Positions 3,855-55,472 of a stretch of DNA of 63,737 nucleotides are shown here, piece after piece. The DNA is from an uncultured Gammaproteobacteria bacterium (GTDB lineage Bacteria > Patescibacteriota > Patescibacteriia > SBBC01 > JACPUP01), in contig CAYWEH010000002.1 in NCBI GenBank assembly GCA_964457305.1, positions 1-63,737 on the forward strand, in the 5' to 3' direction. Below the pieces are notes generated by a model, which ran no database searches, had not been told where the DNA came from, and was given only the letters and a program-made list of their open reading frames with translations. Each line of letters starts with the position of its first letter. Within the stretch, counting starts at the first letter, position 1. The position numbers were made by a program, and so were the translations under genes.

Positions 3855-4570
3855 CCAGTGACGCCATCGTAGTCCTTGCCGGCGGCGTGGCGGCTGACGG
3901 CTCGCTGCCTCTCTGGGTCCGCTTTCGGGTCGAGCGCGGCGTAACGCTCTGGCGCAACGGCATCGCCCGAACGATCATCCTGTCCGGTCGCTGGGGTTTC
4001 GCTGAACCGATACCCCCACCCACCACCGAAGCGCAAGCGATGAAACGTCTGGCGATTCATCTTGGCGTACCGGCGAAACACATCCTCACCGAGGAGCAGT
4101 CGCAGGACACCATCGGCAACGCCTACTTTACCCAGACGACGCTGCTCGTTCGGCGTGGCTGGACACGACTCGTCATCGTCACCTCGGACTACCACCTGGC
4201 CCGAGCCCGATATATCTTTGAAAAAATTCTCGGACCAAAATACGTCTGTCGTTTCGTCGCCGCGCCGAGCGGCTTGTCGCCCCGTGCCAGACGAGAACAT
4301 GGTGTCGTCGAACGGGCACTCCTCGCGCTCACCAAGCATTGGTTGGACCGGATCCCTGACGGCACCACCGCCTACTTCGCCGCCTTCCTCGCCTGCCAGC
4401 ATCCGGGGTATAGCCAACTGCCAACGACCGCCCATCGAACACTGGCGCGCTTCCTCCACCGAACGCCTCGACACCGCACGGCCCTCGCTTGGCACCTCCG
4501 CTTTCTCGCCCGCCGAATGACCAGCACGCCATTCCGCCCTGCGGCCAAAGACTCGACACCATTCCATTAG
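3851..4570 (+). CDS. DUF218 (YdcF/ElyC/SanA-like) domain protein
   Basis: AIVVLAGGV...IILSGRWG...EAQAMKRLAIHLGVPAKHILTEEQSQDTIGNAYF...LVIVTSDYHLARARYIF is the DUF218 signature pattern. The start was set to the ATG at 3851. Confidence 0.75.
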   Translation: MTSDAIVVLAGGVAADGSLPLWVRFRVERGVTLWRNGIARTIILSGRWGFAEPIPPPTTEAQAMKRLAIHLGVPAKHILTEEQSQDTIGNAYFTQTTLLVRRGWTRLVIVTSDYHLARARYIFEKILGPKYVCRFVAAPSGLSPRARREHGVVERALLALTKHWLDRIPDGTTAYFAAFLACQHPGYSQLPTTAHRTLARFLHRTPRHRTALAWHLRFLARRMTSTPFRPAAKDSTPFH

Positions 4571-5769
4571 CGAAAACCGGGCCGGGGCACGAACCACGTC
4601 GGCAGCCACTGACGGGTTTTTACCTGGTCGGGCGAGAGCGGGCGGGCGGTCCAGACCGGCCAGAACCACGCGCTAACGGTAAAAACAATTGCCAATACTA
4701 CCCCGCTGATGAGGAGACGGCGGCGCGAGTTTCCCAGCCACGTCCGCCATCCCACCAAAGCGAGCAGCCAGAGAAACGGAACGGCGAGCATCGCATGATA
4801 CGAGAAGAGCGGGCGCGTAATGGCCGCAAAGGGGACCAGCGCCGCAAGAACAAACAAGAGCAGTTGATGGACACGCCGGTCTTTCCGAAGGGCGATGACG
4901 GTGGTGACTGCCCCGACGACGCCACCCCACCACAAGACTGGATTGCCCAGATCGGCAATCAGCTGACGCGACCCATCGGCGGCGGTCGCGGTGGCATACA
5001 TGAACGGACGCCAAAGAACCAGCCACGACCACCACGGCGACTGGTAGGCATGCTGTTCGGCAATTCCGGTGTGATGGCGGAGCATCGCGTAGTGCGTCAG
5101 CCAGAACTGCTGCGGCATGCCCGTCAACGCAAAATGCAATTCGAACAACCCAATGTACACAATGAGTGCGGCGGCCGTAAACCCAAGTGCCGAACGGAGA
5201 ACAAAACGAGGATCCCGCTGCCAGGCGAGCATGGCGACCGGAAAGACCAATAAAAGCGCTGACCACTTCACGCCGATGGCAAGGCCGAACACGGCGCCAG
5301 CGACGGCCCAGCCCCCGGCGGTCTTCGCCCGCGCTGCCAACCACACGGCCAACAACGTCGCGAAGGCCAGGGTAATATTGAGCAGGCCGAGACGAGACTC
5401 AACCACAAACATGCCGTCAACGGCCACCAGTGCCGCGGCGACAATCCCAATAAGCGTCGAGCCAGTGAGCCGACGGCCAACGAAAAACATCAGCGGCACG
5501 AGCAGTGTCCCGAGGAGCGCCACCGGCCACCGCCAACCAACCGGCGTATCACCCGCGAGCGCAATTCCAAAAGCAATCACCAACTTCCCAAGTGGCGGGT
5601 GCACGTCGAGGAACGGTTCATGGCGCAGGTAGTGGCGCGCGTCATTCACGAAGTAGACCTCGTCGCTGGTGATCTCGGGGGGCGTTCCGATGCGCCAAAA
5701 CCGCGCCCCACCGCCAAGGAGCGTCAGCACGAGGAGACTCACCCCAATCCACCGTCGCCGGGATTCCAT
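4567..5769 (-). CDS. GT39 / PMT-like polyprenyl-phosphate-mannose protein mannosyltransferase (GT-C fold)
   Basis: Part of ORF 4567..6081, trimmed to MESRRRWIGVSLLVL... Loop 1 reads RIGTPPEITSDEVYFVNDARHYL...DVHPPLGK, with the PMT 'DE' motif, followed by about 10 TM segments. Confidence 0.8.
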   Translation of the reverse strand: MESRRRWIGVSLLVLTLLGGGARFWRIGTPPEITSDEVYFVNDARHYLRHEPFLDVHPPLGKLVIAFGIALAGDTPVGWRWPVALLGTLLVPLMFFVGRRLTGSTLIGIVAAALVAVDGMFVVESRLGLLNITLAFATLLAVWLAARAKTAGGWAVAGAVFGLAIGVKWSALLLVFPVAMLAWQRDPRFVLRSALGFTAAALIVYIGLFELHFALTGMPQQFWLTHYAMLRHHTGIAEQHAYQSPWWSWLVLWRPFMYATATAADGSRQLIADLGNPVLWWGGVVGAVTTVIALRKDRRVHQLLLFVLAALVPFAAITRPLFSYHAMLAVPFLWLLALVGWRTWLGNSRRRLLISGVVLAIVFTVSAWFWPVWTARPLSPDQVKTRQWLPTWFVPRPGFR

Positions 5770-5899
5770 ACCACCAAAGTATACTGCACCGCGAACGACC
5801 CACGCCACCAAACACCTCTCCGTTGTCAGGCGCATCGTTTTATGGTATATCCAAGGCAGTCCCGCGCCATTTTTTAGAAGCCCTCGGCCGAACGCAAAT

Positions 5900-6769
5900 A
5901 TGAAAAAAATCCGCAAAGCCGTTATTCCGGCCGCCGGCTGGGGCACCCGTTTCCTTCCGGCCACGAAAGCGCAGCCGAAGGAAATGTTGCCGATCGTCGA
6001 CAAGCCGATCATCCAGTACGTCGTCGAGGAAGCGGTCGCCTCGGGCATCGAGGACATCATCATTGTCACCGGCTGGCACAAGCGCTCGGTCGAGGACCAC
6101 TTTGATTATCCATTCGAGTTGGAAAAACGACTGCTGGAGGCGGGCAAAGAACAGCAGGCGAACGAGGTTCGGAAAATCGCCGAGATGGCGAATTTCATTT
6201 ACATCCGCCAGAAGGGAATGTACGGCAACGGGACGCCCGTCCTCAATGCCGAACCGCTGATCGGCGACGAACCGTTCGCCGTCCTCTGGGGCGATGAGTT
6301 TATCACGGCCACGCCGCCGCGGCTCCAACAACTCATTGACCTCCGCACCGAACTCGGGGGATCGGTCATCAGCGCGGTCCGCGTCCGACCCGAAGAAACG
6401 AACCGCTATGGCATCGCCCGGGTTACCCCCGTGCGCGAACGCGTCTCGCGCATTGAAGAGATCGTCGAGAAACCCGAACCCGGGCAAGCCCCCTCGTCGC
6501 TCGCCACCCACGGCGCCTACCTCTTGACGCCGGATATCTTCCCTGTCCTCCATGAGCAAAAACCCGGTCGGGGCGGGGAAATATGGCTGCCCGAAGCCGT
6601 CAATACGCTGGCCAAACGCCAGCCGGTCTACGCCCTCGAGCTCGCCAACGCGGTCTACTACGATTGCGGCTCAAAACTCGGCTGGCTGCGCGCCAACATC
6701 GCCTTTGGCCTCAAACACCCGGAAACCGGTCCCGGACTCAAAGACTACCTCGCCTCCCTTCCCCACTAA
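5900..6769 (+). CDS. galU: UTP--glucose-1-phosphate uridylyltransferase
   Basis: MKKIRKAVIPAAGWGTRFLPATKAQPKEMLPIVDKPIIQYVVEEA is the canonical GalU N-terminus. The ORF-track N-terminal extension (5669..) overlaps the GT39 gene and was rejected. Confidence 0.9.
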   Translation: MKKIRKAVIPAAGWGTRFLPATKAQPKEMLPIVDKPIIQYVVEEAVASGIEDIIIVTGWHKRSVEDHFDYPFELEKRLLEAGKEQQANEVRKIAEMANFIYIRQKGMYGNGTPVLNAEPLIGDEPFAVLWGDEFITATPPRLQQLIDLRTELGGSVISAVRVRPEETNRYGIARVTPVRERVSRIEEIVEKPEPGQAPSSLATHGAYLLTPDIFPVLHEQKPGRGGEIWLPEAVNTLAKRQPVYALELANAVYYDCGSKLGWLRANIAFGLKHPETGPGLKDYLASLPH

Positions 6770-6772
6770 CCC

Positions 6773-8209
6773 ATGTCGCGACGCACGATCATTCTCATTC
6801 TCATCGCCATCGCCGTCCTGGCGCCGTCGTTCCTGATCATCTCCGGCGTCATCTCGAAGAAGCAGATCGTCCCCGCCCCAGTCAGCCTGACTTGGTGGAC
6901 GATTGATGACTCGCCCGAATCCCTCGCGGACATCCTCCAGGCGTACCGACAACTCCATCCCTACATCAGCGTCACGGTCGTGCAAAAACCGGCCGACTCG
7001 TATGAAGCCGATTTGAAAAACGCCTGGGCCAAGGACCAGGGGCCGGACATCTTCTCGCTGCCGAACACCGCCGTCGCCTCGTTCAAAGACTTCATCCAAC
7101 CCCTGCCGAAGCAGACCCGGACCGCCTTCTTCAAGACGCGCAATCTCCTGGTTCGCGAGGAGCAGGAAATTACTTACCAAGTCGAAAGCAGCATCACACC
7201 AAACCAAATCCGCCAGGAATACATTGACGCCGTCGCGAAAGACGTCGTTATCCGCGATGCGCAGGGAACCGAACAAATCTATGGCTTGCCGCTGGCGGTG
7301 GATACGCTGATGCTCTTCTACAACCGCGACCTGTTGAGCAGCGCCGGCATCATTGACCCGCCAGCGACGTGGGAGGACTTCGTCGCCGCCATCCCCCGCT
7401 TGACGCTCCAAGATTCGGACGGGAACGTCGTCCGGCCCGGCGTCGGACTCGGCTTGGCCAAGAATGTCCCGTACGCCTTCGACATCCTCTCGCTCCTCAT
7501 GCTGCAGAACGGCGCGCTCATGGTCGACTCGAGCGGACAACAAATCCTCTTTCACCGACCGAACGAAGCGGGCGAAACTCCGGGGCTCGGCGCGCTGAAA
7601 TTCTACACTGACTTCGCCCAGACCAACCCGCCGAAAGAAGTCCTGACCTGGGGGACAAACTTCCCGAACGCCCTGACCCTTTTCGCCCAGGGAAAGCTGG
7701 CCATGGCGTTCGGGTACCAGCGCGACCGGCAGTGGATCTCGGCCGGCAGCGCGAATCTCAACTACGACGTCGCACCGGTCCCCCACATTCATGAAAATGA
7801 ACTCGACAACGACGCCACCGCCCCCGCCGGCGACCAGCTCCGGAAAATCACCTACGGCCGCTACGGGATCCAGGCCATCGCGCTTAAGGCTCGGCAGAAA
7901 GCGAATGAGGCGTGGAACCTCGTGCAGTTCGCTTCCCGCAGCGGCGTGGTGCGGAACTACCTCGGCCGGACCGAGCAACTGTCCGCCCTCCGCAAAGTGC
8001 TCCGTGAACAACAGGCAAACCCGGCCCTGGCGGTCGCGTCGCTGCAGGCACCGGCCATCCGCAGCTGGTATCACGGCCAGAATTTCACCGCCACCGAGCA
8101 GTACTTCACCACCATGATTGAAGAGGTCGCGCTCAAGGGCAACGATGCCTCGCAAGCCCTCAACCTGACGGCCGATCAAATCAACCTCACGCTCCCGAGA
8201 CCGCAATGA
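6773..8209 (+). CDS. Extracellular solute-binding protein (ABC SBP family 1-like), membrane-anchored
   Basis: 478 aa with an N-terminal anchor IILILIAIAVLAPSFLII, then LTWWTIDD...GPDIFSLP...IYGLPLAVDTLMLFYNRDLL...ATWEDF, which is typical of sugar SBPs. No cognate permease or ATPase is adjacent. Confidence 0.7.
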   Translation: MSRRTIILILIAIAVLAPSFLIISGVISKKQIVPAPVSLTWWTIDDSPESLADILQAYRQLHPYISVTVVQKPADSYEADLKNAWAKDQGPDIFSLPNTAVASFKDFIQPLPKQTRTAFFKTRNLLVREEQEITYQVESSITPNQIRQEYIDAVAKDVVIRDAQGTEQIYGLPLAVDTLMLFYNRDLLSSAGIIDPPATWEDFVAAIPRLTLQDSDGNVVRPGVGLGLAKNVPYAFDILSLLMLQNGALMVDSSGQQILFHRPNEAGETPGLGALKFYTDFAQTNPPKEVLTWGTNFPNALTLFAQGKLAMAFGYQRDRQWISAGSANLNYDVAPVPHIHENELDNDATAPAGDQLRKITYGRYGIQAIALKARQKANEAWNLVQFASRSGVVRNYLGRTEQLSALRKVLREQQANPALAVASLQAPAIRSWYHGQNFTATEQYFTTMIEEVALKGNDASQALNLTADQINLTLPRPQ

Positions 8210-9405
8210 AACGCCGTCTCATCCTGCTCGCCTGCCTCGTCACGAGTTGGCTGCTCATCGCGCCGACCGCCTCGGCCGCGTCACGTTTTCTCATTCGCCT
8301 GCCCACCTGCGAACAAACGGTTTATAAGATCGAAAACAAAGAGAAAGTATCGCAGACGATGTCGCCCGACGAATACGACGCGAAAGCAACTGCTGACCCC
8401 ACGTTCAAGGAAACCTGGACGGTGACCGAGGTCACGACCAGCGGCGATTGCGGCGTCGACGAGTTCTTTCAGCTCTTCGCCAGCCTGGCAACGTGGGGCT
8501 TGAGCATCCTCGGCGCCGTTGCCGTCTTCTTCTTCATGTGGGGCGGCTTTACACTCCTCATCGCTGGCGGACGAAGCGAGAAGGTCGAGGAGGGAAAGAA
8601 GATCCTCAACGGCACATTCATGGGGGTAATCGTCGTCCTGACCGCCTGGATTATCGTGAACGCGTACATCATCGGTTTTGCCGGCGGCAAATCCATCTTC
8701 CCCAATTCACCTTTCACGCGCAGCGGTCTAGGCTCCACCGGTAGTCAATGTCGGGCAAGCTATCTGACAAACTATTCGCAAACCGGTTGTACCGGGAATG
8801 ACCTCCACTTCGGCTGTGCGGACCCGACCACCGGCGACGGCGCCGTGACGAAACTCCAGACGCTCCTGGCGGCAAAATGCCCGTCGGTCGGCGCCGCCGA
8901 CGGTTGCTTCGGGAGGAACACGGCCTACGCGCTCTGGGGATTTTTGGCTTCGAACGGGTACCAACCGATTCCGGAAAATTATCGTGACGTCCGCGGAAAC
9001 GCCGCCACGCTCCAACGGCTGCTCACCGACCCGACGAGCAAAGAGTGCTCCGACGCGTTCGGACTCACGCCCGTGTCCGACCCCGCCGACCCGAGCGACC
9101 AACCGGCCTCATCGGGTTGCTGCGTTCCCGCGTCCGTCGATGCGCGCGGGAGCTGCATCGCAGCCGCAACCGCCGCCGACTGCCCGGTTGGCCGCGGTAC
9201 TGTTCCCGATTACAACTTCCAATCGTTTGCCTGCAACACCTTTCCGCTCTGCACGGCTGGCTGCTGTATCAAATACCAACCGAACGGGGCGAAGACCTGC
9301 GAATCCTGCACTCGGGAGCGCTGCACGACCGCCGGGGCCGTCTGGCAGCAGGGCGCATGCACCTTCTCCACTAATCAATGTCAATCCGCAACCCTATGTT
9401 CCTAA
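8206..9405 (+). CDS. Secreted fusion protein: VirB2/TrbC-like pilin hairpin + PG-binding-like domain + Cys-rich C-terminal module
   Basis: It has a signal peptide (LLIAPTASA). A two-helix hairpin, FFQLFASLATWGLSILGAVAVFFFMWGGFTLLIAGGRSEKVEEGKKILNGTFMGVIVVLTAWIIVNAYI, matches the paralogs at 9378, 10002 and 10408. GDGAVTKLQTLLAAKC...DGCFGRNTAYALWGF resembles PG_binding_1. The last ~100 aa contain 15 Cys. Its ATG overlaps the SBP stop (ATGA). Confidence 0.65.
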   Translation: MKRRLILLACLVTSWLLIAPTASAASRFLIRLPTCEQTVYKIENKEKVSQTMSPDEYDAKATADPTFKETWTVTEVTTSGDCGVDEFFQLFASLATWGLSILGAVAVFFFMWGGFTLLIAGGRSEKVEEGKKILNGTFMGVIVVLTAWIIVNAYIIGFAGGKSIFPNSPFTRSGLGSTGSQCRASYLTNYSQTGCTGNDLHFGCADPTTGDGAVTKLQTLLAAKCPSVGAADGCFGRNTAYALWGFLASNGYQPIPENYRDVRGNAATLQRLLTDPTSKECSDAFGLTPVSDPADPSDQPASSGCCVPASVDARGSCIAAATAADCPVGRGTVPDYNFQSFACNTFPLCTAGCCIKYQPNGAKTCESCTRERCTTAGAVWQQGACTFSTNQCQSATLCS

Positions 9406-9725
9406 CCATCCCCCTCATCGTTTCGTTCCTCGTCGCGCCGCTCGCCGCCTGGGCCGTGGTTGAAATCCCCAACCCAATTGCCTGCGGCGACCTGGTCTGC
9501 CTCTTTGTCGGCGTCATGCGTTTTTTCTTGGCCGCCATCGGCGTGTTCGCAACCTTCATCTTCATGTGGGGTGGTTTCCTCATGCTCACGTCGCAGGGTG
9601 AGGCGGAGCGGGTAAAAAAGGCTCGGGATACACTGTTTTGGGCGACCATGGGGATTATTACCGTTCTTGGCAGCTGGGTGTTCATCCGATTTATCCTCGA
9701 GACAACCTCGACCGTCACTCGATAA
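9378..9725 (+). CDS. VirB2/TrbC-like pilin-family small membrane protein
   Basis: 115 aa with a signal peptide (...LVAPLAAWA), helix 1 (FFLAAIGVFATFIFMWGGFLML), a charged loop (TSQGEAERVKKARDT) and helix 2 (LFWATMGIITVLGSWVFI). The C-terminal tail is Thr-rich (ETTSTVTR). An alternative start at 9396 is possible. Confidence 0.65.
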   Translation: MSIRNPMFLTIPLIVSFLVAPLAAWAVVEIPNPIACGDLVCLFVGVMRFFLAAIGVFATFIFMWGGFLMLTSQGEAERVKKARDTLFWATMGIITVLGSWVFIRFILETTSTVTR

Positions 9726-9726
9726 T

Positions 9727-9755
9727 TTGACATTTCCTGGCGGTTCTCTTATACT
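9727..9755 (+). promoter_or_regulatory. Near-consensus sigma70-type promoter (TTGACA-17 nt-TATACT)
   Basis: ttgaca (9727-9732), a 17-nt spacer, then tatact (9750-9755). It lies immediately after the stop of the 9378 gene and ~250 nt upstream of the next pilin-like ATG. Confidence 0.5.
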
Positions 9756-10001
9756 GGCGCTGACGTTCCCATACAAAACCGAATCCACTCGGCAAAAACA
9801 TCGTTTGCTCACTTTGAACGTCAAATATTCATTCTTCTTAGACAGCGCCGTACTTGGACATGGGGGTGCACGTTACGTGTATCACGAAAAGTTATACACA
9901 GGAGCATGCCTCCTTAAAAAAGACGCCACCAAGACCGGCTCTGCGGAAACACAAACAGGAAAAGCGAAGACGAGTTTCAACGCTAATTCCATAAAGAACC
10001 T

Positions 10002-10364
10002 ATGAAGAAGTTCACAAACCTCGCTGTCATCGCTGCCCTGCTCGGCGGGCTGGTCGTCCCAGCCGTCGCCGTCGCGCAGACGTCATTCAGCATCGAGAAC
10101 ATCGGCGGTTCCATCGGGCTCGGCACCTCCGACCTGAAGACGACCGTCATCAATATCATTAAGTGGGTCCTCGGCATCCTCGCCCTCGTGGCGGTCACCC
10201 TCGTCATCTACGGCGGCTTCACCTGGATGACCGCGGCCGGCAATGATGAGCGGATTGACAAGGGCAAGAAGATCATCTCGGCGGCCATCGTCGGTCTGAT
10301 CGTGGTGATTCTCGCCTGGGCCATCGTCATCTTCGTCGCTGGCACGACCCGCAACGTCACCTAG
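10002..10364 (+). CDS. VirB2/TrbC-like pilin-family protein, paralog A
   Basis: 120 aa with a signal peptide ending AVAVA/QTSF, IENIGGSIGLGTSDLK, hydrophobic helix 1, the loop AAGNDERIDKGKK, helix 2, and a C-terminal AGTTRNVT. Confidence 0.8.
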   Translation: MKKFTNLAVIAALLGGLVVPAVAVAQTSFSIENIGGSIGLGTSDLKTTVINIIKWVLGILALVAVTLVIYGGFTWMTAAGNDERIDKGKKIISAAIVGLIVVILAWAIVIFVAGTTRNVT

Positions 10365-10407
10365 CCAGTTCATCACACGGACACCACACGAGAGGGGGTG
10401 ATATCGC

Positions 10408-10767
10408 ATGAAAAAATTCGCAATCACAGCCTCGACCCTTTTTGCGCTCGCGCTGGTCGTCGCTCCGATCGCCGTCGCGCAGACGTCGTTCAGTATTGAG
10501 AACATCGGCGGTTCCGTCGGTTTGGGGACGTCCGACTTGAAACAGACCGTCGTGAACGTCATCCAGTGGGTTCTTGGCATCCTCGCCCTCGTGGCGGTTC
10601 TGATGATCATCGTCGGCGGCTTCCAGTGGATGACCGCGGCCGGCAATGATGAACGGATTGACAAAGCGAAGAAGATTATTTCGGCAGCGGTTATCGGTCT
10701 AATTATCGTGTTGCTCGCCTGGGCCATCGTCATCTTCGTCGCTGGCACGACCGCCAACGTCACTTAG
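10408..10767 (+). CDS. VirB2/TrbC-like pilin-family protein, paralog B (tandem duplicate)
   Basis: 119 aa, roughly 80% identical by eye to paralog A, with long identical nucleotide runs. GAGGGGG lies 8 nt upstream of the ATG. It ends AGTTANVT. Confidence 0.8.
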   Translation: MKKFAITASTLFALALVVAPIAVAQTSFSIENIGGSVGLGTSDLKQTVVNVIQWVLGILALVAVLMIIVGGFQWMTAAGNDERIDKAKKIISAAVIGLIIVLLAWAIVIFVAGTTANVT

Positions 10768-10786
10768 TCACTTGCAGGCATTCTCA

Positions 10787-10860
10787 CCCCGCACCTTTCT
10801 GCAGACGAGCCGGTCCCCGTGATCGACTCGCCCCCGGGAAGGTGCGGGGTTTGTTTTTTC
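10787..10860 (+). terminator. Putative intrinsic terminator after the pilin-like array
   Basis: An 11-bp inverted repeat, ccccgcacctt (10787-10797) / aaggtgcgggg (10839-10849), is followed by tttgttttttc. The 41-nt loop is unusually long. Confidence 0.55.
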
Positions 10861-10885
10861 GTTCATCGTTTGCCACAATGATTGT

Positions 10886-12835: not shown

Positions 12836-14466
12836 AGAAAAATCGTCTGACCGACATACACCGGTTCAAGAAACGATTTGGTGTTGGGGTCAAACGAGCC
12901 GGTGGATCGTTCTAACGGCCCCCAAAAAACATAGGAAATCCGATTTTGATACAAGAAATTTGCTTGTTCCTCCGGGGATTCCTCGTCACGGAAAAACGCC
13001 TCGACCTGCTGCCGTTTCCGCTCGTAGTCTAAAGTCTCAACCGGATGGCCAACGTAGGTTCGCCGCCCGGTAAAACCAGGGATGACATTGCCGGTCCCCG
13101 CCCGAGCCAAGATGATCGCATCGCCCTCGGTCCGCTTCAGCACATTGAAGGCGTTGGCGTACTCATCCGGCAGATACATCACGAACGGCGCCGTGCGATT
13201 GGTAAGGACAAAATTGATGTCTTGTCCGAGAACGACCGCGTTGGAAAAACCAAACAGAACCAAAAAAGCGAAGGTGAGGGCAATTGGACTATTGGCGAAA
13301 AATGCCGCAAATGATTTTGGCCGTTGTCGCCACCGCGCAAAAACCTCCGCAATGAGATCCGCCGTCAATAACGCGAGCGGGATCGAGAGCCCTTGCGTCA
13401 ACCGCCGCTGAAAGAACAACGGAACGAAAATCAGTATCCCCTGGACGACAATCCAGAGCGCCAGCAGGGAACGCCGCTCATCTCGCCATGTCGAACGTCG
13501 AACAAACATCAACAATGCGGCTAATGCCAGGAAGCCATAACTCTCGAGTACAATATGGAAGGCCGGTGTCGGCAAGACGTTTTGCGCGGCTCGGACAACG
13601 CCGATGGGATTCGTCGTCGCGGCCACATACTGCCAGGCAAACGCAGGCGCGGCAATCACCGCGGCTACCATCATCTGGAGAAGGCACTGAAGCCAAGGGA
13701 CCCGGCGATGGAAACACTCCCATAGACCCCACACCACGATGATGGCCGCGAGTGACGGCGCATGGAACGGGTGGAACGCGAACAGCCACAGGGCGGCTAG
13801 CCCCGCCCCAATGCTATACCGATATCGGCCGGTCCGCCAGGCGAGAACGATACCGGCCAACACGAGCATGAAAAGTATGGTCCCAAAAGTGAAGTGCCCG
13901 GTTTGGTGGAATTGAAGAAAAGGAAACGCTTCCGTCACCCAAAGGTCCATCGGGTAGGTCATGGGGGAAACGCCTTTCGGAAACTGCCCCTCCAAAGGCA
14001 GGGCGAAGTACCCGCCGAGTCCGGAGGCAAAAGCCACGAAGATGAGGGCAATTTTCCGCCGCGAAGGCTCGCGGAAAATGAGCGCCGAGAGTACATACGC
14101 CACGACAATAAACAAAGGAACCATCGCCAGCCGAGCCAGGTGGAAGGCGGCCGGTGGCGACAAGGCAAGCAGTCGCGCGACCCAGCCAACTGGCAGCCAA
14201 AACACATTTAAGTTAAAGGGGGCATGCGGTTCGGAAGTGAACAGATCGGAAAAAACGACCATGCCTTTGGCCGCCTGATCGATGTACGAATAATAGACCG
14301 GATAGTCACCGGGTGAGAGCGTGTGCAGGCCGGTGGCGAAGTACCCGGGAGGTGTCAGAACAACAATGACCACGAGGGACAGCGCGGCCAACGCCACGGC
14401 CACCACCGCAATCTTCCCAACAAACGCCCACTCATTTCTGCCAATCGTTGCCAAGAATGAACGCAT
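12766..14466 (-). CDS. Large polytopic membrane protein, GT-C-like (family unassigned)
   Basis: 566 aa with about 12 TM segments followed by a ~150-aa soluble C-terminal domain. It is the last gene of the minus-strand operon 19747->12766. Its 3' end overlaps the convergent DUF2079 gene by 70 nt. The function is inferred from architecture and context only. Confidence 0.5.
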   Translation of the reverse strand: MRSFLATIGRNEWAFVGKIAVVAVALAALSLVVIVVLTPPGYFATGLHTLSPGDYPVYYSYIDQAAKGMVVFSDLFTSEPHAPFNLNVFWLPVGWVARLLALSPPAAFHLARLAMVPLFIVVAYVLSALIFREPSRRKIALIFVAFASGLGGYFALPLEGQFPKGVSPMTYPMDLWVTEAFPFLQFHQTGHFTFGTILFMLVLAGIVLAWRTGRYRYSIGAGLAALWLFAFHPFHAPSLAAIIVVWGLWECFHRRVPWLQCLLQMMVAAVIAAPAFAWQYVAATTNPIGVVRAAQNVLPTPAFHIVLESYGFLALAALLMFVRRSTWRDERRSLLALWIVVQGILIFVPLFFQRRLTQGLSIPLALLTADLIAEVFARWRQRPKSFAAFFANSPIALTFAFLVLFGFSNAVVLGQDINFVLTNRTAPFVMYLPDEYANAFNVLKRTEGDAIILARAGTGNVIPGFTGRRTYVGHPVETLDYERKRQQVEAFFRDEESPEEQANFLYQNRISYVFWGPLERSTGSFDPNTKSFLEPVYVGQTIFLYRVKRPAAVGMTMGDPIGRIER

Positions 14467-14468
14467 GG

Positions 14469-15149
14469 TTATCGAAAAAGAAGATCAAGAATCATTCGCA
14501 GGTACGCGGCAATGACCGCCGGACTAATTTTACTCTTCCCATACTGGCGGTCCTGAAATTGAAACCCGACCTCGTCGATCCGTTTCGGCTTTCCGCGTAC
14601 GAGCATTTCCAACAGAAGCTTATACCCGCGCGGGTGGAGTTGTAGATGTACCTGGTCGAAAAACGTCCGCTGGACGGCAAAATACCCGCTCATCGGATCG
14701 CGAACCGGAACGCGAAAAAGCAGTCGCGCTACCCCCGTCGCCACCCGGCTCATGAACTGTCGCCAGGCCGGCCACCCGACCATGCCGCCGCCCGGCGCAA
14801 ACCGGGAACCGACCGCCACCGTCGCGCCGGATCGGAGTCGTTCAACCAAGGCCGGAATGATCTCCGGATCATGTGAAAGGTCGGCATCCATGACGACGAG
14901 GAATTGCCCATGCGCGGCCGCAAACCCATCGACCATGGCTGATGCCAGGCCGGATTTCCCAAGACGATGGATGATGCGAAGCGGATACTGGCGGGCCAGA
15001 TCATCAGCCAAGGCACCGGTGCCATCGGGAGAGTTGTCATCCACGACAATCGCTTCCCACGACGCGAGTCGAAGACGAGCAATCGCCGCGAGAAGCTTGG
15101 GCAGGTTCTCCCGCTCGTTATAGGTGGGCAGAATAATGCTAATGTCCAT
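14469..15149 (-). CDS. Polyprenol-monophosphomannose (Dpm1/Ppm1-like) synthase, GT2
   Basis: MDISIILPTYNERENL...VVDDNSPDGTG...GKSGLASAMVDGF...VVMDADLSHDP is the canonical Dpm1-type GT2 pattern. The start was set to the ATG at 15149. Confidence 0.85.
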   Translation of the reverse strand: MDISIILPTYNERENLPKLLAAIARLRLASWEAIVVDDNSPDGTGALADDLARQYPLRIIHRLGKSGLASAMVDGFAAAHGQFLVVMDADLSHDPEIIPALVERLRSGATVAVGSRFAPGGGMVGWPAWRQFMSRVATGVARLLFRVPVRDPMSGYFAVQRTFFDQVHLQLHPRGYKLLLEMLVRGKPKRIDEVGFQFQDRQYGKSKISPAVIAAYLRMILDLLFR

Positions 15150-16422
15150 GGGCGCGGGAAGTGAGCCACCGAGGCGGCCCGGCAATGGCCAACGCGGCAA
15201 GAGTGAAAAAAGTTAAGTACGAAACGTAATTCCAGTTGAAAAAACGAGATAAAAACCAAAACGTAAACGAAAACACGGACGCAGAAATCACCAGCTGGGT
15301 AAGAGAGTTCCGCATTCGCTGTAGATAAAGTAACACGACGAGTAGAGGGCCAGCGATGGCGGCCTGAAGATAGATAATTGGGTAGTAGTCCCAAATACTC
15401 TTAATAATCCCGCTGCTGACCCTGAGATCAGAAATCCCGAACCCGGAAATCGGGTAGCTCGTCGTCAAACTGCCCGCAGGGTACCGATAGATGTCGTCAA
15501 TGAAATCCTTTGGATTCCACAAAAAAAATGGAAGGATGAAGAGCGCGGCTACTCCGGCCGCGATGAAAGTCGGTCGCCACCGACGCCAACCAACCACACC
15601 GCCGTGCCACACAGTGTACGCGACGAAGAACGGCGCGAACATCCAGGCCGACTGCTTCGATGCGCAGGCGAGTCCGAAAAGGATGGCCCCCCAGCTCCAG
15701 CGACCGCGCTGGAAGCACCAGAGCATCCCCGCCATGAAAGTAAAAACGAAAATATCATTATACCCCTGGACAAAGAACTTGATCCAGAAAGGATTCAACG
15801 CGAACAACAAACCGATAAGTAGCCGCCACTCACGACCTCGCGCGAGGCCGATAACGAAAAAAAACGAGACGATCTCCGCGAGCACGTAGACAACGCGCTG
15901 ATCGTACCAACCAGTCAGGTGATTGAGCACGTACGAGAACGGCAACGAAGCGAGAAAATGGAATGGCAAATACACATGGTGCCACCATGCCGGATTCGGA
16001 CGGATGCCGCGTGAAAACCCATCGAGGAACCCGCCAAACGGCATGGACCGGTAATCGGCACTGTACGGATTCTCCCCACGGAGAAAAAACGTGATTGCGT
16101 CTTCCGTCTGAACCGCACCATCGTGAATCCCGCGGGTCGGAACCGTCTTCGCTCGAATAGCCATTTGGTTTACTTCAAGAACGAGGAAGAACACCGAGGT
16201 AACTGCCACCATACACATCGCTCGGTAAAACCACGTTCGACCTGGTGATCCACCTTTCCAAACAAGAAGCAGCGGGACCAGGAGGATGGGACTAAATATG
16301 AACGCCCACCAGGCATGCAATAACACGAAACTCATAATAGCTAATACCGGAAAAAGGAGCGCGCTGGCCCAGGCGATTCGCCGTTCGGAAACATCGTGGG
16401 GGTTGGCGGGGTGTCCAATCAT
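15139..16422 (-). CDS. Polytopic membrane protein, GT-C-like (DUF2029/GT87-like mannosyltransferase candidate)
   Basis: 427 aa with about 10 TM segments. An early loop reads GENPYSADYRS...; NPFWIKFFVQGYNDIFVFTFMAG and LACASKQSAWMFAPFF resemble DUF2029-type enzymes. The assignment is tentative. Confidence 0.5.
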   Translation of the reverse strand: MIGHPANPHDVSERRIAWASALLFPVLAIMSFVLLHAWWAFIFSPILLVPLLLVWKGGSPGRTWFYRAMCMVAVTSVFFLVLEVNQMAIRAKTVPTRGIHDGAVQTEDAITFFLRGENPYSADYRSMPFGGFLDGFSRGIRPNPAWWHHVYLPFHFLASLPFSYVLNHLTGWYDQRVVYVLAEIVSFFFVIGLARGREWRLLIGLLFALNPFWIKFFVQGYNDIFVFTFMAGMLWCFQRGRWSWGAILFGLACASKQSAWMFAPFFVAYTVWHGGVVGWRRWRPTFIAAGVAALFILPFFLWNPKDFIDDIYRYPAGSLTTSYPISGFGISDLRVSSGIIKSIWDYYPIIYLQAAIAGPLLVVLLYLQRMRNSLTQLVISASVFSFTFWFLSRFFNWNYVSYLTFFTLAALAIAGPPRWLTSRAHGH

Positions 16423-16425
16423 GGT

Positions 16426-17067
16426 TTATCCACGCGCTGCACTGATGAGGTGGTACGTTTGCCCAAAATGCCGTTCATGGTGAAGAATGATAAATCCAGC
16501 AGTCATCAGTTCTTGCTGCAGCACCCGATCCGTAAATCCGGGCGTATGCAAATCCTGCCAGACCGCACCGCGCGAGCGCGTCCAAACCCACCACACCGCG
16601 TTGAAGATCCGCCCAGTCGGTATGGTTATCAGAAACACGCCGCCCGGCCGCAACACGCGTCGCACCTCACGCAGCAATGGGAAAACGTCAGAGAGGTGTT
16701 CGAGGACGTCGAAGGCGGTGACGAGATCGAAGTGACTCGATGGGAATGCCAACGGCTGGGTGATATCAGCGACCTCAAGGTGCAGCGTTGGACGATGCTG
16801 ACGCCCGTAGGCAATCGCGCTTTCGGAAAAATCGAGTCCAGTCACTTCCGCCCCGGTCCACGTCGCCAGGTACGACGTCAACCACCCGCTATGGCATCCG
16901 AGATCGAGAATGTGTGATGGTCTGCGGGGGAGGCGACGGAGCGCCCGCTGCAATAAACGCAACCGGCCGCGGTGCCAGAACCGTTGCCAGATGTTCGTCC
17001 GCATGCCGGTCTCATAATACTCGGCCGGCACGGCTTCATGCAGATGGTGTCGGTCCTGGCTATCCAT
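16426..17067 (-). CDS. Class I SAM-dependent methyltransferase
   Basis: Motif I ILDLGCHSGW, then GLDFSESAI...FDLVTAFDVLEHL...LRPGGVFLITIP. The start was trimmed to MDSQDRHH (17067). Confidence 0.8.
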   Translation of the reverse strand: MDSQDRHHLHEAVPAEYYETGMRTNIWQRFWHRGRLRLLQRALRRLPRRPSHILDLGCHSGWLTSYLATWTGAEVTGLDFSESAIAYGRQHRPTLHLEVADITQPLAFPSSHFDLVTAFDVLEHLSDVFPLLREVRRVLRPGGVFLITIPTGRIFNAVWWVWTRSRGAVWQDLHTPGFTDRVLQQELMTAGFIILHHERHFGQTYHLISAARG

Positions 17068-17075
17068 AGCAGAAC

Positions 17076-18677
17076 TCACAAAGCCGCGGGCACACGGTAG
17101 ACGGTTGCGTCCGCATCTCCATAGACCTGTTCTAACGCGGGTTCGTTCTTGACTAACCGTTCCATGGCGGTGTGGTCGCGATCGACGAACACGTACCCGG
17201 CGTCGAGTTCGCGCAGGCCAGCGAGCAGCGGCTTGGCGTACACGCCGGTCGTGATGTCCACCCACGTCCGGTAACGAGCCGGGTCGGCGGTGTAAAGGAA
17301 CGTTGCGTCGAGACCGGCCAGGTACCGTGACCGGTCGTTGTAGTAAAAAAGAACGGGAAACTCATCCCAATCGCTGTGCACGACGATGACGTCGGGCGGG
17401 GCGTGATCGCGCAGCCAGCGCATCGCTCCAGCGTACTGCGTCTGGCGGAACCCCTGGCGAAGATCGCCATGTTGCGTTACGAGGTCGCGGACAACGACGG
17501 TCGGCAGGAGGATGGCCAGGTAGACGACAAGGATCACCGACGGGATGAACGTCCGCCAACGGGCGACCACCGGCCGCACCCGCGTCCGAAATTCGCGATC
17601 GAGACGACGGCCTTTCCAGGCGTCGCTATACACCGACAAGACAAAGAACATGCCCATCGGCACGTAGTACTCGACGTAGCGCCGTGATTTCACGGTCACG
17701 GCAAAAAAAAGGAGCGTCAGAAGCAAAAGGACCAGCGATCGACGCGACTGCTTCGCGAACGTCAAGGCATACGTGAAAAAGGCGACCAGGAGCGGAATCG
17801 TTAAGACAATGGTGTTCGTCAGTAATTCGATCGGCTGGTACGGGTACCACTCGCCGCCAACGCCAATGACCTGCCGGTAGTTCACGACGCCGACCTGGAT
17901 GAATTGATGAAAGAAAAAGGCCAGATTGTCTGGAAAGAAGGGATTGATCACCACGCCGAGAACAAGACCAACCGTGGCGGCCAGCAGCAGGTTGAGCGCG
18001 TGCGGCAGGCTCGACCGGCGCCGGAGGTGCGTGGCCGGGAAGAGTCGGGTGAGAATGCCGTCCGCCTGCCGATGTCGCTCGATCGCATCACCCATGACGG
18101 ACGCTCCAACGAACAGCGCCGCGGCCACAAAGACCAACGGAAACCCGTTATGCGACCAGACATACAAAAAGCCCACGACGGCCAACAATTTCGGACGGTA
18201 AGCGAAGAGCGCGTAGCACGCGACCAGGAGTAGGATCAGGGCAAACGCATTACCCTTGGCCAACCCGAGCCGAAAGGTGAGCGGGGTGATAAACAGCAAC
18301 AACAGACTGCCAACGAAAGCGTGGGAGATGTGCAACCCCCGCATGACGTAGTAAAAAACCAACAGAAAACCGACGGCCAGGGCAACCGTCGCGATCTTCA
18401 GGCCCACGAGCGGATCGGGGTAACTGACAAAGGGAATAAGCAACACATGGTAGAGGAAGTGCTGATCCGCGTAATGACGGGCGAGCTCGGTATACGGCAG
18501 CCACGGGAAAGACTGGACCACCCCCCGATCACGGATGAGCTGCGCCATCTTCGCGTGGTAGAAACTGTCCGGATCGGCGAACATCGGGCTGGCCAGCTGA
18601 ACGACAAAGAGGGCGACCGTCAACACGACTAGGGTCAGCGGCTGCCCCCACTCGCCCCAAGCGCCAGTTCGTTTCAT
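17076..18677 (-). CDS. Large polytopic membrane protein, GT-C-like (family unassigned)
   Basis: 533 aa. The acidic motif FADPDSFYHAKMAQ follows directly after TM1, the position where PMT/ArnT/STT3-type GT-C enzymes carry catalytic acidic residues. It has about 11 TM segments and a ~130-aa soluble C-terminus. Confidence 0.5.
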   Translation of the reverse strand: MKRTGAWGEWGQPLTLVVLTVALFVVQLASPMFADPDSFYHAKMAQLIRDRGVVQSFPWLPYTELARHYADQHFLYHVLLIPFVSYPDPLVGLKIATVALAVGFLLVFYYVMRGLHISHAFVGSLLLLFITPLTFRLGLAKGNAFALILLLVACYALFAYRPKLLAVVGFLYVWSHNGFPLVFVAAALFVGASVMGDAIERHRQADGILTRLFPATHLRRRSSLPHALNLLLAATVGLVLGVVINPFFPDNLAFFFHQFIQVGVVNYRQVIGVGGEWYPYQPIELLTNTIVLTIPLLVAFFTYALTFAKQSRRSLVLLLLTLLFFAVTVKSRRYVEYYVPMGMFFVLSVYSDAWKGRRLDREFRTRVRPVVARWRTFIPSVILVVYLAILLPTVVVRDLVTQHGDLRQGFRQTQYAGAMRWLRDHAPPDVIVVHSDWDEFPVLFYYNDRSRYLAGLDATFLYTADPARYRTWVDITTGVYAKPLLAGLRELDAGYVFVDRDHTAMERLVKNEPALEQVYGDADATVYRVPAAL

Positions 18678-19747
18678 CCGCGCCCCCGCTCGAGCGCCCG
18701 CTTGAAGTAGACAACCCAGGGAATCGCCGCCGGCCTGACGCGGTGGAGGAGGGCCAGGTAATAAGACAGCAGGCTGGTTTCCGCGAGAAACCCAAAAGCA
18801 TTCGCCACCGGTGCGCGTCCGAACGTCGGCAGGTGGAACGTCGCCAACCCGCGGCGACGGAAAATCCGCTCGGTCAGCCGAAAACGGCGACGCAGTGGTT
18901 CATCACCCGCGGCGGAAAGGAACACGGCCGCCCCGCGCTTCACCGCCGTCGGAAATCCCAGGCCCTCCAGGAGATGATGATTAAGCTCGGGCAACGCAAA
19001 CGGGCTGGCAAAGGTCTTCGCGTTCTCGTTCAACTGATTGGCGAGGATGTGGGCGTTCCCGAAAAAACGGTCGCTGGCTACCGCCATGACGAAACGCTCC
19101 CGCAACGCCACGGCCAGCTGCTTCAGCGCGTTAGCTCGCGTCGGGACTTCGGGGTGACAGCGGCGCCAGACCGCGGCCGTCGCCGCTTGCGCCGCTCGCT
19201 GTTCCGCCCTCGGGAACCGACGCCACCCCAACGCCGAAAACAGAACGAGGAACGCCGCTGCCGTAAAACCGATCCCCAACCGAGGTTGTCCCGACGGATT
19301 CCGCCGCGTGTCAATGAGATACAACGGCACGCGCCAGCGCCGCGCCAGCGTGGCCAATGCCCCGCCGCCGGCCATGACGATCATCGGCACGCGCCGCTGC
19401 CGGGCCGCCTTGGCCGCCGCGAGCGTCTCGGCCGTTCCCCCGGAATAACTGACGGCCACGACCAAAGAACCAAGACGAACGGCCGCTGGCAGTTGCGGTT
19501 CTCGGACCGCAATGATTGGCGCGGGCAGCGTACTGGCGACCAGCCCGCGGACCAAATCTGCCCCCAACCCCGAACCGCCCATGCCCGCCACGTACACAGA
19601 ACGGCTGGCGCGCATGCGCGCGGTAACCCGGGGACGAAAAGACGCGACGGCATCACCGATCTGCTCCGGCAGCCGCTGCAGAGCCGCCGCAACAGAACCG
19701 TTGTCGAAGCGAGCGTACGGCGAGGCGAGATCAAGGAAAGAGGACAT
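18674..19747 (-). CDS. Bifunctional phosphoglucose/phosphomannose isomerase (SIS domain)
   Basis: VYVAGMGGSGLGADLV...VVAVSYSGGTAETLAAAKAA is a SIS pattern, and the C-terminal half resembles the bacterial PGI/PMI C-domain. The start is at MSSFLDL (19747) or 19780. Confidence 0.75.
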   Translation of the reverse strand: MSSFLDLASPYARFDNGSVAAALQRLPEQIGDAVASFRPRVTARMRASRSVYVAGMGGSGLGADLVRGLVASTLPAPIIAVREPQLPAAVRLGSLVVAVSYSGGTAETLAAAKAARQRRVPMIVMAGGGALATLARRWRVPLYLIDTRRNPSGQPRLGIGFTAAAFLVLFSALGWRRFPRAEQRAAQAATAAVWRRCHPEVPTRANALKQLAVALRERFVMAVASDRFFGNAHILANQLNENAKTFASPFALPELNHHLLEGLGFPTAVKRGAAVFLSAAGDEPLRRRFRLTERIFRRRGLATFHLPTFGRAPVANAFGFLAETSLLSYYLALLHRVRPAAIPWVVYFKRALERGRG

Positions 19748-19867
19748 AGCTGGTGCCGTCAGTGTACCAAATCCGGTCACTGCCTAACAGTCGCAGGCGT
19801 TGACCGAGGGCGGAGAAAATGGTATGTTCAACGCACCTCCGCTGCCTGAACCACTTGGGCTTTTTGT

Positions 19868-20629: not shown

Positions 20630-21110
20630 GGCGACGGTGCTCGGGCTCGACCCCGGTATCGCCCGCGTCGGCGTTGCCCTCCTCACCGGCACGCCGCGCC
20701 AGCCGCGGCTTTTGGCCTGCACCACGCTCACGACCCCCCCGAGCAACGACCCGGGTACGCGCCTCGCGGCCATCGCCACATCGGTCGAGAGACTCATCCG
20801 CCGCTACCGACCAACCGTCGCCGTCATGGAAAAACTCTTCTTCCAGAGGAACGTCAAAACCGCTTTGAGCGTCAGCGAGGCCCGCGGCGTGCTTCGCCTG
20901 ACCTGTGCCCGCGCCGGTCTCCGGCTCATCGAATTCACGCCGAACGAAGTGAAACAAGCAGTCACCGGCCATGGCCAGGCGGACAAACGTGCGATTCAGA
21001 AGATGGTCAGGCTGATCCTCGGTTTGCACACTCCCATCCGGAGCGATGACGCGGCCGACGCGGCGGCGATCGCCCTCACCGGCGCCCTCCATCTCCCCTA
21101 TGGACCGTAA
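20610..21110 (+). CDS. ruvC: Crossover junction endodeoxyribonuclease RuvC
   Basis: VLGLDPGIARVGVALL, AVMEKLFFQRNVKTALSVSEARG, EFTPNEVKQAVTGHGQADK and DDAADAAAIAL. The start at 20610 overlaps the yebC end by 20 nt. Confidence 0.9.
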   Translation: MGLTAPKATVLGLDPGIARVGVALLTGTPRQPRLLACTTLTTPPSNDPGTRLAAIATSVERLIRRYRPTVAVMEKLFFQRNVKTALSVSEARGVLRLTCARAGLRLIEFTPNEVKQAVTGHGQADKRAIQKMVRLILGLHTPIRSDDAADAAAIALTGALHLPYGP

Positions 21111-23630: not shown

Positions 23631-23631
23631 T

Positions 23632-24846: not shown

Positions 24847-24849
24847 CCT

Positions 24850-26238: not shown

Positions 26239-26241
26239 TCT

Positions 26242-33791: not shown

Positions 33792-34068
33792 CCGTCAGCC
33801 CGACAAAGTGACGTCCCGGGAAGTGGCGGCGCAGTTCGCCGAACAACCCTTCTTTTTGTTCGCTGACCAGGGCGGCGACTGCCGGGTGGTCAACGCCGAT
33901 AAAAACCCGTCCGCGAGCGTACCGATAGGCGTGGGCGGACTGGCCCAGGGCAAGCTCTTCGGCCAGATAGTTGTTCACGCTCTGGACCACCGCCTGTGCC
34001 TCCAGCTGTCGTTCCACGCCAAGCCGTCGGATGGCGCCTCCGACCAACGACGACAGGGGCGTGAACAT
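33769..34068 (-). CDS. DUF721 / DciA-like protein
   Basis: 99 aa, located directly downstream of dnaN. The size and the pattern (LGVERQLEAQAVVQSV...RGRVFIGVDHPAVAALV) fit DUF721. Confidence 0.6.
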   Translation of the reverse strand: MFTPLSSLVGGAIRRLGVERQLEAQAVVQSVNNYLAEELALGQSAHAYRYARGRVFIGVDHPAVAALVSEQKEGLFGELRRHFPGRHFVGLTVTARRLS

Positions 34069-34069
34069 A

Positions 34070-55315: not shown

Positions 55316-55472
55316 ACGGTGGCTCCTTAAACTAAATAGGAAATACGAGGTTGTTTGAGATGCCAAACCCCCCTTTTTCAGCCAGGGAACAGTACTGGAA
55401 GGCCGGGCGTCTGTCAAGGACTTATGGCAATTCCAAAAACGAGAAAGACGCGGCCAGATGCATCAGGGGCGA

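Follow-up and report, generated by a model that had tools for sequence, protein, structure and literature searches.

The stretch of DNA analyzed here (hereafter the window) comprises 63,737 nucleotides of a metagenomic contig (CAYWEH010000002.1, assembly GCA_964457305.1), and the subject of this report is a cluster of about 15 kb near its start in which genes for VirB2/TrbC-like pilins stand among genes for sugar supply and for membrane glycosyltransferases of the GT-C type (Table 1). An original prediction made from the sequence alone had proposed that this locus builds a glycosylated, perhaps methylated, surface filament from the pilin-like proteins. All of the genes it listed are present, as judged by open reading frames (ORFs) and by Pfam and NCBIfam matches, and the gene concentration that it called unusual is a clustering beyond chance that recurs in many species. 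Because the array lies among sugar-supply and glycosyltransferase genes in a layout that is repeated in relatives, the pilins are perhaps sugar-coated. There is good support both for glycosylation machinery at the locus and for a coupling between it and the pilins, and glycosylation of the pilins themselves is plausible.

The cluster and its pilin-like genes

The order on the + strand is galU, sbp (for the solute-binding protein, SBP), pil399, pil115, a promoter-like site, pil120, pil119, a terminator-like hairpin and the DUF2079 gene. The unit begins with galU, and its first four genes are closely packed or overlapping, such that sbp starts 3 nt after galU and its stop overlaps the start of pil399 by 4 nt; the DUF2079 gene follows downstream on the same strand. 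Converging on this unit are the − strand genes, which run from 19780 down to 12766 in the order PGI/PMI, M533, methyltransferase, GT87-like, GT2 and M566, while the PMT-like gene is divergent from galU. M533 denotes a 533-aa protein, and with it its family, and M566 a 566-aa protein; neither has a match to a Pfam family. The DUF2079 and M566 genes are convergent, with 3′ ends that overlap by 70 nt (12766-12835), and overlaps of 15-30 nt between them recur in related loci (e.g., L005 and L015). Rfam gave no match anywhere in the cluster, the pil120 leader included.

Table 1. Positions of the cluster's features, and of related features elsewhere in the window (aa, amino acids; SAM, S-adenosylmethionine; TM, transmembrane segment)
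Feature	Position	Strand	Support
PMT/GT39-like GT-C protein, 400 aa	4567-5769	-	PMT 90.2 bits, 2e-25; PMT_4TMC 66.6 bits, 3e-18; PMT_2 2e-13
GalU, UTP-glucose-1-phosphate uridylyltransferase	5900-6769	+	TIGR01099 323.8 bits, cut-off 326.8
SBP (SBP_bac_1), membrane-anchored, extracellular, N-terminal TM	6773-8209	+	Pfam 4e-24
pil399, 399 aa	8206-9405	+	PF18895 (T4SS_pilin) 44.6 bits
pil115, 115 aa, class-B pilin	9378-9725	+	PF18895 26.0 bits, gathering score 26.6
Near-consensus sigma-70-type promoter-like site, TTGACA-17-TATACT (11/12)	9727-9755	+	Directly after the pil115 stop
pil120, 120 aa, class-A VirB2-like pilin	10002-10364	+	PF18895 44 bits; NF045849 29.9 bits
pil119, 119 aa, class-A VirB2-like pilin	10408-10767	+	PF18895 52.7 bits; NF045849 35.9 bits, cut-off 40
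Intrinsic-terminator-like hairpin, 5 G-C pairs + TTTGTTTTTT	10832-10859	+	Directly 3′ of pil119
DUF2079 polytopic membrane protein	10886-12835	+	Pfam DUF2079 172 bits
M566	12766-14466	-	AlphaFold pLDDT 89.9, pTM 0.90; Foldseek E 2e-10 to 1e-4
GT2, polyprenyl-phosphate-sugar synthase type (ArnC/GtrB/Dpm1/AglJ-like)	14469-15200	-	Pfam Glycos_transf_2 2e-31
GT87/MptA-B/ALG3-like GT-C protein, 427 aa	15139-16422	-	Pfam GT87 37.6 bits (gathering score 25); ALG3 28 bits
Class I SAM-dependent methyltransferase	16426-17067	-	Methyltransf_11 4e-22
M533	17076-18677	-	AlphaFold pLDDT 91.3, pTM 0.90; Foldseek STT3/AglB/PglB E 1e-9
Bifunctional phosphoglucose/phosphomannose isomerase (PGI/PMI, SIS)	18674-19780	-	bact-PGI_C 6e-20
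DnaA	35378-36865		
Fifth class-A pilin paralogue, frameshifted	53511-53881	+	hmmsearch 99.8 bits, three-frame translation

The four proteins described in the original prediction as small and of VirB2/TrbC fold do belong to the T4SS_pilin family (which takes its name from type IV secretion systems, T4SS), but one of them, at 399 aa, is not small. Three score above the PF18895 threshold (44.6, 44.0 and 52.7 bits), and pil115, despite its sub-threshold Pfam score, is a clear family member that reaches 59 bits against a class-specific hidden Markov model (HMM) and whose position is conserved in 29 loci. Signal peptides and two-helix hairpins can be read in the pilin sequences. In pil399 a signal peptide is followed by the hairpin (residues 84-153) and then by a Cys-rich extracellular part of 245 aa, for which a family search gave no match. 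The two class-A proteins, which also resemble the pilin-like conjugal transfer proteins of NF045849, end in nearly identical tails (…FVAGTTRNVT in pil120 and …FVAGTTANVT in pil119); pil120, with a signal peptide and a mature N-terminus beginning QTSF…, is, like its class, a presumed major pilin. Between the promoter-like site and pil120 lies a leader of ~240 nt whose predicted fold is more stable than that of shuffled sequences (z = -2.86). The gap between pil115 and the following pilin gene is just ~90-160 nt in several relatives.

A further class-A paralogue, with the tail …GAAANVTRGA, is found far from the array. Its signal-peptide and hairpin parts are in different frames, owing to a 1-nt shift near 53625-53630 within the otherwise conserved stretch GGSVGLGTSDLK, such that it is either a pseudogene or an assembly error in the metagenome-assembled genome (MAG). 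It adjoins a protein with four dockerin-type repeats (53936-55417, − strand).

Are these proteins pilus subunits at all? We consider it distinctly unlikely, yet worth weighing, that the PF18895 proteins form with the SBP a complex of small membrane proteins for uptake, sensing or adhesin anchoring, the glycosylation genes then having their role in this complex or in some other, unconnected process. Such a complex would fit the 4-nt overlap of sbp with pil399 and the conservation in relatives of the position of sbp beside a pil399-type gene; no ABC permease or ATPase partner adjoins sbp. It would also fit the anchor-like extracellular extensions that the hairpin often bears, which may be Cys-rich, Ig-like or made of NHL repeats: in relatives, proteins of up to 3098 aa continue the T4SS_pilin hairpin on its C-terminal side with Big_5, Big_7 (Ig-like), TIG and NHL repeats. 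Giant fusions of this kind (575 to 3098 aa) were seen at L101:9857-19153 and L151:9845-18307 and in L128 and L140, where the pilin module looks like an anchor or display platform for large adhesin-like domains. Furthermore, a tblastn search of 72,556 plasmids with pil119 returned no match. As the original prediction had stated, no VirB4, VirB6 or VirD4 domain is found in any large ORF scanned in the 64-kb window, and no T4SS ATPase or channel gene is among ten large unmatched ORFs sampled from related loci.

Set against this are the matches of the family to TrbC/VirB2 (TrbC matches being seen in the fused relatives) and to a pilin-like family from integrative and conjugative elements of Mycoplasma, as well as the apparent promoter and terminator that pil120 and pil119 have to themselves, which would suit an abundant polymer subunit. 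Arrays of this kind are found in Saccharibacteria within an essential T4SS cluster, and in Southlakia epibionticum the array located in the T4SS cluster is itself essential (PMC10633639). Distance from the rest of a T4SS is also common, given that VirB2-like arrays of Patescibacteria, with 2-11 genes, are often far from virB4 and near dnaA, and that a survey found VirB2-like pilin genes away from virB4 in ~40% of the Patescibacteria assemblies having both (813 of 1,948) (PMC12102498). The earlier conclusion that these are probably not conjugative pili can thus not be drawn from a single contig, since their assembly may be the work of a T4SS whose genes lie in another part of the genome.

After the second helix the class-A tail reads F-V-x-x-T-T-x-N-V-T, with a position-fixed [N/x]-[V/A/I]-T; of 98 pilins, 79 have T or S and 45 have N at the fixed columns. 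When tails were registered by HMM, N-x-S/T was present in 82 of 355 class-A tails versus 57.9 ± 5.9 in composition-preserving shuffles, none of 2000 of which reached 82. Sequons begin at tail position 6 in 74 of 96 instances, and position 8 is T or S in ~61% of tails. These values supersede those from an earlier heuristic definition of the tail, with which the sequon signal was weaker (36 observed versus 26.7 ± 3.7). Class-B tails, of the pil115 type, hold no N-x-S/T. In view of the fusions in relatives, with Ig-like, TIG and NHL repeats following the hairpin, the pilin C-terminus should lie outside the cell, where GT-C active sites work. Thr/Ser is better conserved in the tail than Asn, which makes O-linkage no less likely than N-linkage. 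A correlation of the NVT tail with the presence of M566 and DUF2079, entertained because loci without these genes are mostly without NVT, was rejected: such loci do have related L-[N/D]-A-[S/G] tails (e.g., L027 and L102), and loci with tandem M533 genes carry N-x-T without M566.

Membrane glycosyltransferases and sugar supply

The five GT-C-type membrane genes of the cluster are the PMT-like, M566, GT87-like and M533 genes and, as a candidate, the DUF2079 gene. It was proposed that the 566-, 427- and 533-aa proteins share the GT-C architecture, and this is borne out by a GT87 score above threshold for the 427-aa protein and by confident AlphaFold models of the other two, built from alignments of 51 (M533) and 28 (M566) homologues. 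Each model has 26 matches in the PDB at E<=1e-3, and every one of them is a GT-C enzyme (E from 1e-10 to 1e-4 overall). Ranking first for both are STT3, AglB and PglB (E 1e-9 to 1e-10, TMq 0.5-0.66, and 0.59-0.66 for M533), followed by DPY19, ALG9/12, AftA/AftD and ArnT. In each protein a TM module precedes a C-terminal alpha/beta domain, and the C-terminal halves of the two are homologous (hhalign 95.9%). An acidic motif in the first extracytoplasmic loop, a GT-C trait, is present in both, its placement being read from the secondary structure of the models. In M533 it is D35-P36-D37, part of the DPDSFYH (residues 35-41) that does lie directly after TM1 as had been noticed, with D35, P36, D37, Y40 and H41 invariant in 51 homologues; in M566 it is the invariant E79, within …FTSEP…. 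A word-index search yielded 31 homologues of M566, and the M533 profile matched 3436 cluster representatives (clusters at 50% identity), of which 1373 reached E<=1e-30.

The structural ranking raises the question of whether M533 is a minimal oligosaccharyltransferase (OST) of the STT3/AglB/PglB kind, which would N-glycosylate the N-V-T of the tail en bloc from a lipid-linked oligosaccharide. We regard this as unlikely. In addition to the OST catalytic subunits at the head of its structural matches, M533 has a C-terminal domain that resembles that of AglB (rank 45, prob 0.99), a DPD after TM1 reminiscent of the DxD of OST loop 1 and a weak sequence match to archaeo_STT3 (TIGR04154, E 6.8e-5, 21.4 bits against a cut-off of 450), and the N-x-T of the tails is enriched and position-fixed. 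However, M533 has no STT3 match, nor any other Pfam match, at E<=0.01 and no useful profile match to a PDB sequence; WWDYG is absent, the nearest conserved stretch being H434-S-D-W437-D438-E-F-P441; more than half of the tails have D, K, S, T, G or E in place of the Asn yet retain the Thr; and the cluster is without genes for assembling a lipid-pyrophosphate-linked oligosaccharide. Moreover, M566 returns the same OST top matches, which may therefore reflect generic GT-C_A similarity. For want of an STT3 family match and of WWDYG, and with OST matches that are perhaps generic, assignment of M533 and M566 to GT66 was rejected. The ArnC/Dpm1-type GT2 encoded next door provides a context in which both may use a polyprenyl-phosphate-linked sugar as donor.

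The DUF2079 protein, a GT-C candidate whose family Pfam places in the GT-C clan, has an extracytoplasmic C-terminal part of ~250 aa and invariant D41, G69-D70-H71 and R178-E179-D180; hhalign related it to M566 at 75% with one alignment and 9.6% with another, and to GT87 at 62%. The GT87-like protein has a precomputed match to the MptA_B_family. The PMT-like protein carries the loop-1 DE motif (…TSDEVYF…) after TM1 and has no MIR domain, and its NCBIfam score as a protein O-mannosyltransferase, 83.6 bits, does not reach the cut-off of 800. It had been counted as part of the system, and this is not supported: among 80 metagenome loci collected around pilin genes (the pilin-anchored set, which includes many short contigs), a PMT-like gene lies near the pilin module in just one and is missing from the other 79; it therefore does not count among the module's conserved members.

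The proposal of a Ppm1-type mannose pathway is likewise unsupported. The GT2, whose probable start is at 15149, matches AglJ, ArnC, PgfS, PpgS and the Dol-P-hexose synthase/transferase families of NCBIfam about equally, all far below their cut-offs, and GalU, the sole nucleotide-sugar enzyme in the cluster, makes UDP-glucose. GalU thus hints at glucose, and the isomerase, which matches NF006425 at 2e-44 (below its cut-off) and adjoins M533 in 58 of 81 loci, would be compatible with glucose or mannose. The methyltransferase recurs at the matching place of 17 related loci. It is missing from the public gene call, which has instead a 210-aa ORF on the + strand (16285-16917). Of the parts of a three-component glycosylation system, GT2 and GT-C are thus to be seen.

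Synteny in relatives and the weight of the readings

Conservation of the neighborhood was followed in the pilin-anchored set, of which ~37 loci of at least 8 kb were counted as long, and in an M533-anchored set of 80 species-representative loci (M533 at 34-47% identity, mapped by phmmer with 10-kb flanks). The order, which recurs in dozens of species, is RuvC-YebC-PGI-M533, then a methyltransferase, none to two GT87 genes and a GT2 in varying combination, then one or two M566 genes, DUF2079, the pilins, pil399, SBP and GalU. In the M533-anchored set, pilins lie within 10 kb in 41 loci, M566 or DUF2079 is at the edge of the flank in 14 and the contig is truncated in 18. The order GalU-SBP-pil399-pil115-pilin is found in ~18 of the ~37 long pilin-anchored loci. 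Of these ~37, 14 had a GT-C gene in a first scan and 8 more a GT2 alone, and 13 have an M533-superfamily gene. The predicted synteny of pilins and transferases in relatives therefore holds, though unrelated neighbors are equally syntenic. Indeed, synteny alone is weak functional evidence, because conservation next to M533 is no lower for the glycogen genes (GlgA/GH57, 44-52 of 80 loci) or for RuvC and YebC (62-65 of 81).

This opens the way for a rival explanation, which we hold to be possible though doubtful, namely that the GT-C and GT2 genes build or decorate a non-protein polymer of the envelope and that the pilin array is merely a neighbor in a gene order frozen near the replication origin. 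The polymer could be a lipoglycan, a teichoic-acid-like polymer, a wall polysaccharide or an S-layer glycan, by analogy with CsbB/YfhO or with mycobacterial mannan and arabinan synthesis. Apart from macrosynteny that reaches glycogen genes, RuvC, YebC and PGI, this explanation would account for the serial GT-C paralogues (GT87/MptA-B-like and one or two M566), which fit stepwise synthesis, for the weak match of both the DUF2079 and GT87-like proteins to a family described as “cell surface glycopolymer formation”, and for the absence of pilins from some M533 loci; DnaA and a switch in the sign of GC skew near 34 kb are only 16-20 kb from the cluster.

Three observations argue the other way, and a fourth, the conserved tail motif of the pilins, joins them. 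Among large unmatched ORFs beside pilin arrays we found a second subfamily, M533b, of ~540-aa proteins with “YLDPDLGWHLK” after TM1, mutually just 34-44% identical and distantly related to M533 by hhalign (95.8%, E 7e-9, 463 columns, with DPD, EW and KSRR motifs aligned) and by reciprocal HMM matches. In eight of eight diverse contigs M533b is the immediate divergent neighbor of the pilin array, outside the RuvC/YebC context; in most cases a GT2 stands behind it, and in some a methyltransferase as well. Secondly, where the intervening glycosyltransferase genes are absent (L016, L027, L034, L036 and L102), M533 comes to abut the pilins. Thirdly, the pilin genes are co-directional and densely packed with galU and DUF2079. 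In addition, several loci (L041, L043, L051, L055, L059 and partly L060) have two tandem M533 copies along with 5-10 pilin genes on both strands, and in these lineages the array and M533 appear to have expanded together. We give more weight to the M533b adjacency, the operon-like unit of pilin, galU and DUF2079 genes and the tail motif than to plain synteny.

Overall, we favor, with middling confidence, the reading that this is a cell-surface glycosylation locus of Patescibacteria that is coupled physically, and probably functionally, to a VirB2/TrbC-like pilin array whose products are the likely acceptors. PGI/PMI and GalU, whose gene identities are clear, would supply activated hexose, UDP-glucose being the sole product that can be identified; the GT2, judging from its family, would charge polyprenyl phosphate with the sugar on the membrane's inner side; and the lipid-linked sugar would then be flipped across. 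Outside, GT-C enzymes, among which M533 and M566 show the fold in confident models, would pass it to surface acceptors. The conserved core would be GT2 and M533, with M566, DUF2079 and the GT87-like protein as lineage-variable additions that may extend the glycan, and it might be speculated that the methyltransferase methylates the sugar. The most likely acceptors are the pilin-like proteins, with their short outside tail, position-fixed Thr/Ser and frequent N-V-T. Here pil120 and pil119, with a strong promoter and a terminator apparently their own, would fit an abundant major subunit, whereas pil399 and pil115 may be minor or anchoring subunits, and assembly of a filament, if there is one, would probably fall to a T4SS with its genes at another site in the genome. 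Of the hypothesis that started this work, the glycosylation machinery and its coupling to pilins stand, while mannose, the membership of PMT as a conserved part and the exclusion of a T4SS are not supported. A bolder version, that the M533 superfamily is a Patescibacteria-wide GT-C family dedicated to pilins and, jointly with an ArnC/Dpm1-type GT2, glycosylates VirB2-like pilins at their exposed C-terminal tails, is offered only tentatively.

A number of observations weigh against the reading we favor. Seven M533-anchored loci with full flanks are without pilins, M566 or DUF2079, and ~11 of the 37 long pilin loci are without any glycosyltransferase. Given the macrosynteny described above, the adjacency within M533 loci of subfamily 1 could, at least in part, be inherited gene order and not a sign of functional linkage. 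With regard to the tails, the sequon Asn is present in just 26-46% of them and lies only ~6 residues beyond the TM helix, a tight distance for a GT-C active site as long as the pilin stays membrane-embedded, and the conserved Thr could be a structural or processing site. The only PDB sequence matches of DUF2079 are to AftD and are sub-threshold (E ~7). Finally, no phosphohexomutase or GDP-mannose enzyme is found in the cluster, and no flippase was recognized among its ORFs of at least 105 aa, small ORFs not having been scanned specifically for GtrA.

The conserved link to glycosyltransferases that use lipid-linked sugars offers a testable idea on how these filaments mature or diversify, and two large unnamed families of membrane proteins, M533 and M566, gain a fold and a likely role. 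If M533 is indeed dedicated to pilins, this pilus would be the first of T4SS type to be glycosylated, and would give episymbiotic ultra-small bacteria a means of varying their surface or recognizing a host. The M533 superfamily, which numbers thousands of proteins and is named in neither Pfam nor NCBIfam, would then consist of pilin glycosyltransferases.

As for its wider setting, the window is core chromosome, with genes for YebC, RuvC, RuvB, glycogen metabolism, TyrRS, LeuRS, PBP1, YidC, TsaD/E, a PilB-type ATPase and DnaA. Beside RuvC-YebC lies a glycogen/starch block (21046-29629) encoding a GH15-like protein, two GlgA-type synthases, two GH57 proteins (one with a UVR motif), an APH-type kinase and a GalT-like protein. 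The PilB/GspE-type ATPase (T2SSE, 418 bits; 40354-42063, ~4 kb from dnaA) implies that the organism also has a type IV pilus or type II secretion machinery. Three ORFs, of 341 aa (33971-34996), 800 aa (46119-48521) and 316 aa (48713-49663), match no Pfam family at E<=0.01, the 800-aa ORF having a faint GHL15 match only. M533 is encoded on one public contig, CAMTXR010000016.1 of the MAG GCA_947085775.1, and its nearest named relatives are Candidatus Kerfeldbacteria and other Patescibacteria. Many public MAG records labeled “uncultured Gammaproteobacteria bacterium” carry the Patescibacteria-type locus and synteny, and their labels look wrong (L015, L027, L034, L035, L038-L041, L053, L054, L056, L058, L062, L068, L069, L076 and L079).

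Comparison with known systems

VirB2-like arrays are essential, if enigmatic, in the sole genetically tractable Patescibacterium and have been called “remarkable” for a monoderm (PMC10633639; PMC12857230). The array described here resembles the published T4SS pilin arrays of Patescibacteria in its PF18895 proteins, its tandem divergent paralogues and its chromosomal location, often near dnaA (PMC12102498; PMC10633639; PMC12857230). It differs in that the published arrays are discussed relative to virB4, whereas this one has glycosyltransferase, GalU and SBP neighbors and no T4SS gene in 64 kb. These papers and a 2025 T4SS review make no mention of pilin glycosylation or of neighboring glycosyltransferases (PMC12102498, PMC10633639, PMC12857230), no report of T4SS pilin glycosylation was found in the searchable literature, and searches for DUF2079 or for an OST in Patescibacteria returned nothing relevant.

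Protein O-mannosylation by Ppm1 and Pmt in Actinobacteria is one example of a three-component system of GT2, flippase and GT-C enzyme. Another is CsbB/GtcA/YfhO, which acts on lipoteichoic acid (PMC5836110). The likeness lies in the pairing of an ArnC/Dpm1-type GT2 with GT-C enzymes, one of which is PMT-like and has the DE motif, in a monoderm envelope; unlike those systems, the locus here has no recognized flippase, an unconserved PMT-like gene, an M533 of unnamed family and pilins as putative acceptors. With STT3/AglB/PglB (GT66), the best structural match of M533 and M566, there is a shared plan of TM module, C-terminal alpha/beta domain and D-x-D-type motif in the first loop, but M533 and M566 are 150-350 residues shorter and have neither an above-threshold STT3 match nor WWDYG nor genes for lipid-linked oligosaccharide assembly nearby.

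The closest functional analogue is TfpW, which is responsible for arabinosylation of the group IV pilin of Pseudomonas aeruginosa (bioRxiv 10.1101/2020.04.19.049825). There a GT-C enzyme modifies Ser/Thr of a pilin on the membrane's outer face from a polyprenyl-phosphate-linked sugar. The TfpW gene adjoins the pilin gene. In contrast, its substrate is a type IV pilin and not one of VirB2/TrbC type, there is no detectable sequence kinship between TfpW and M533, and the present locus has five GT-C or candidate GT-C genes along with GalU and an SBP. Taken together, the arrays, their remoteness from virB4 and their proximity to dnaA were already published, and what appears to be new is the link between pilin arrays and glycosyltransferases, along with two unnamed GT-C families.

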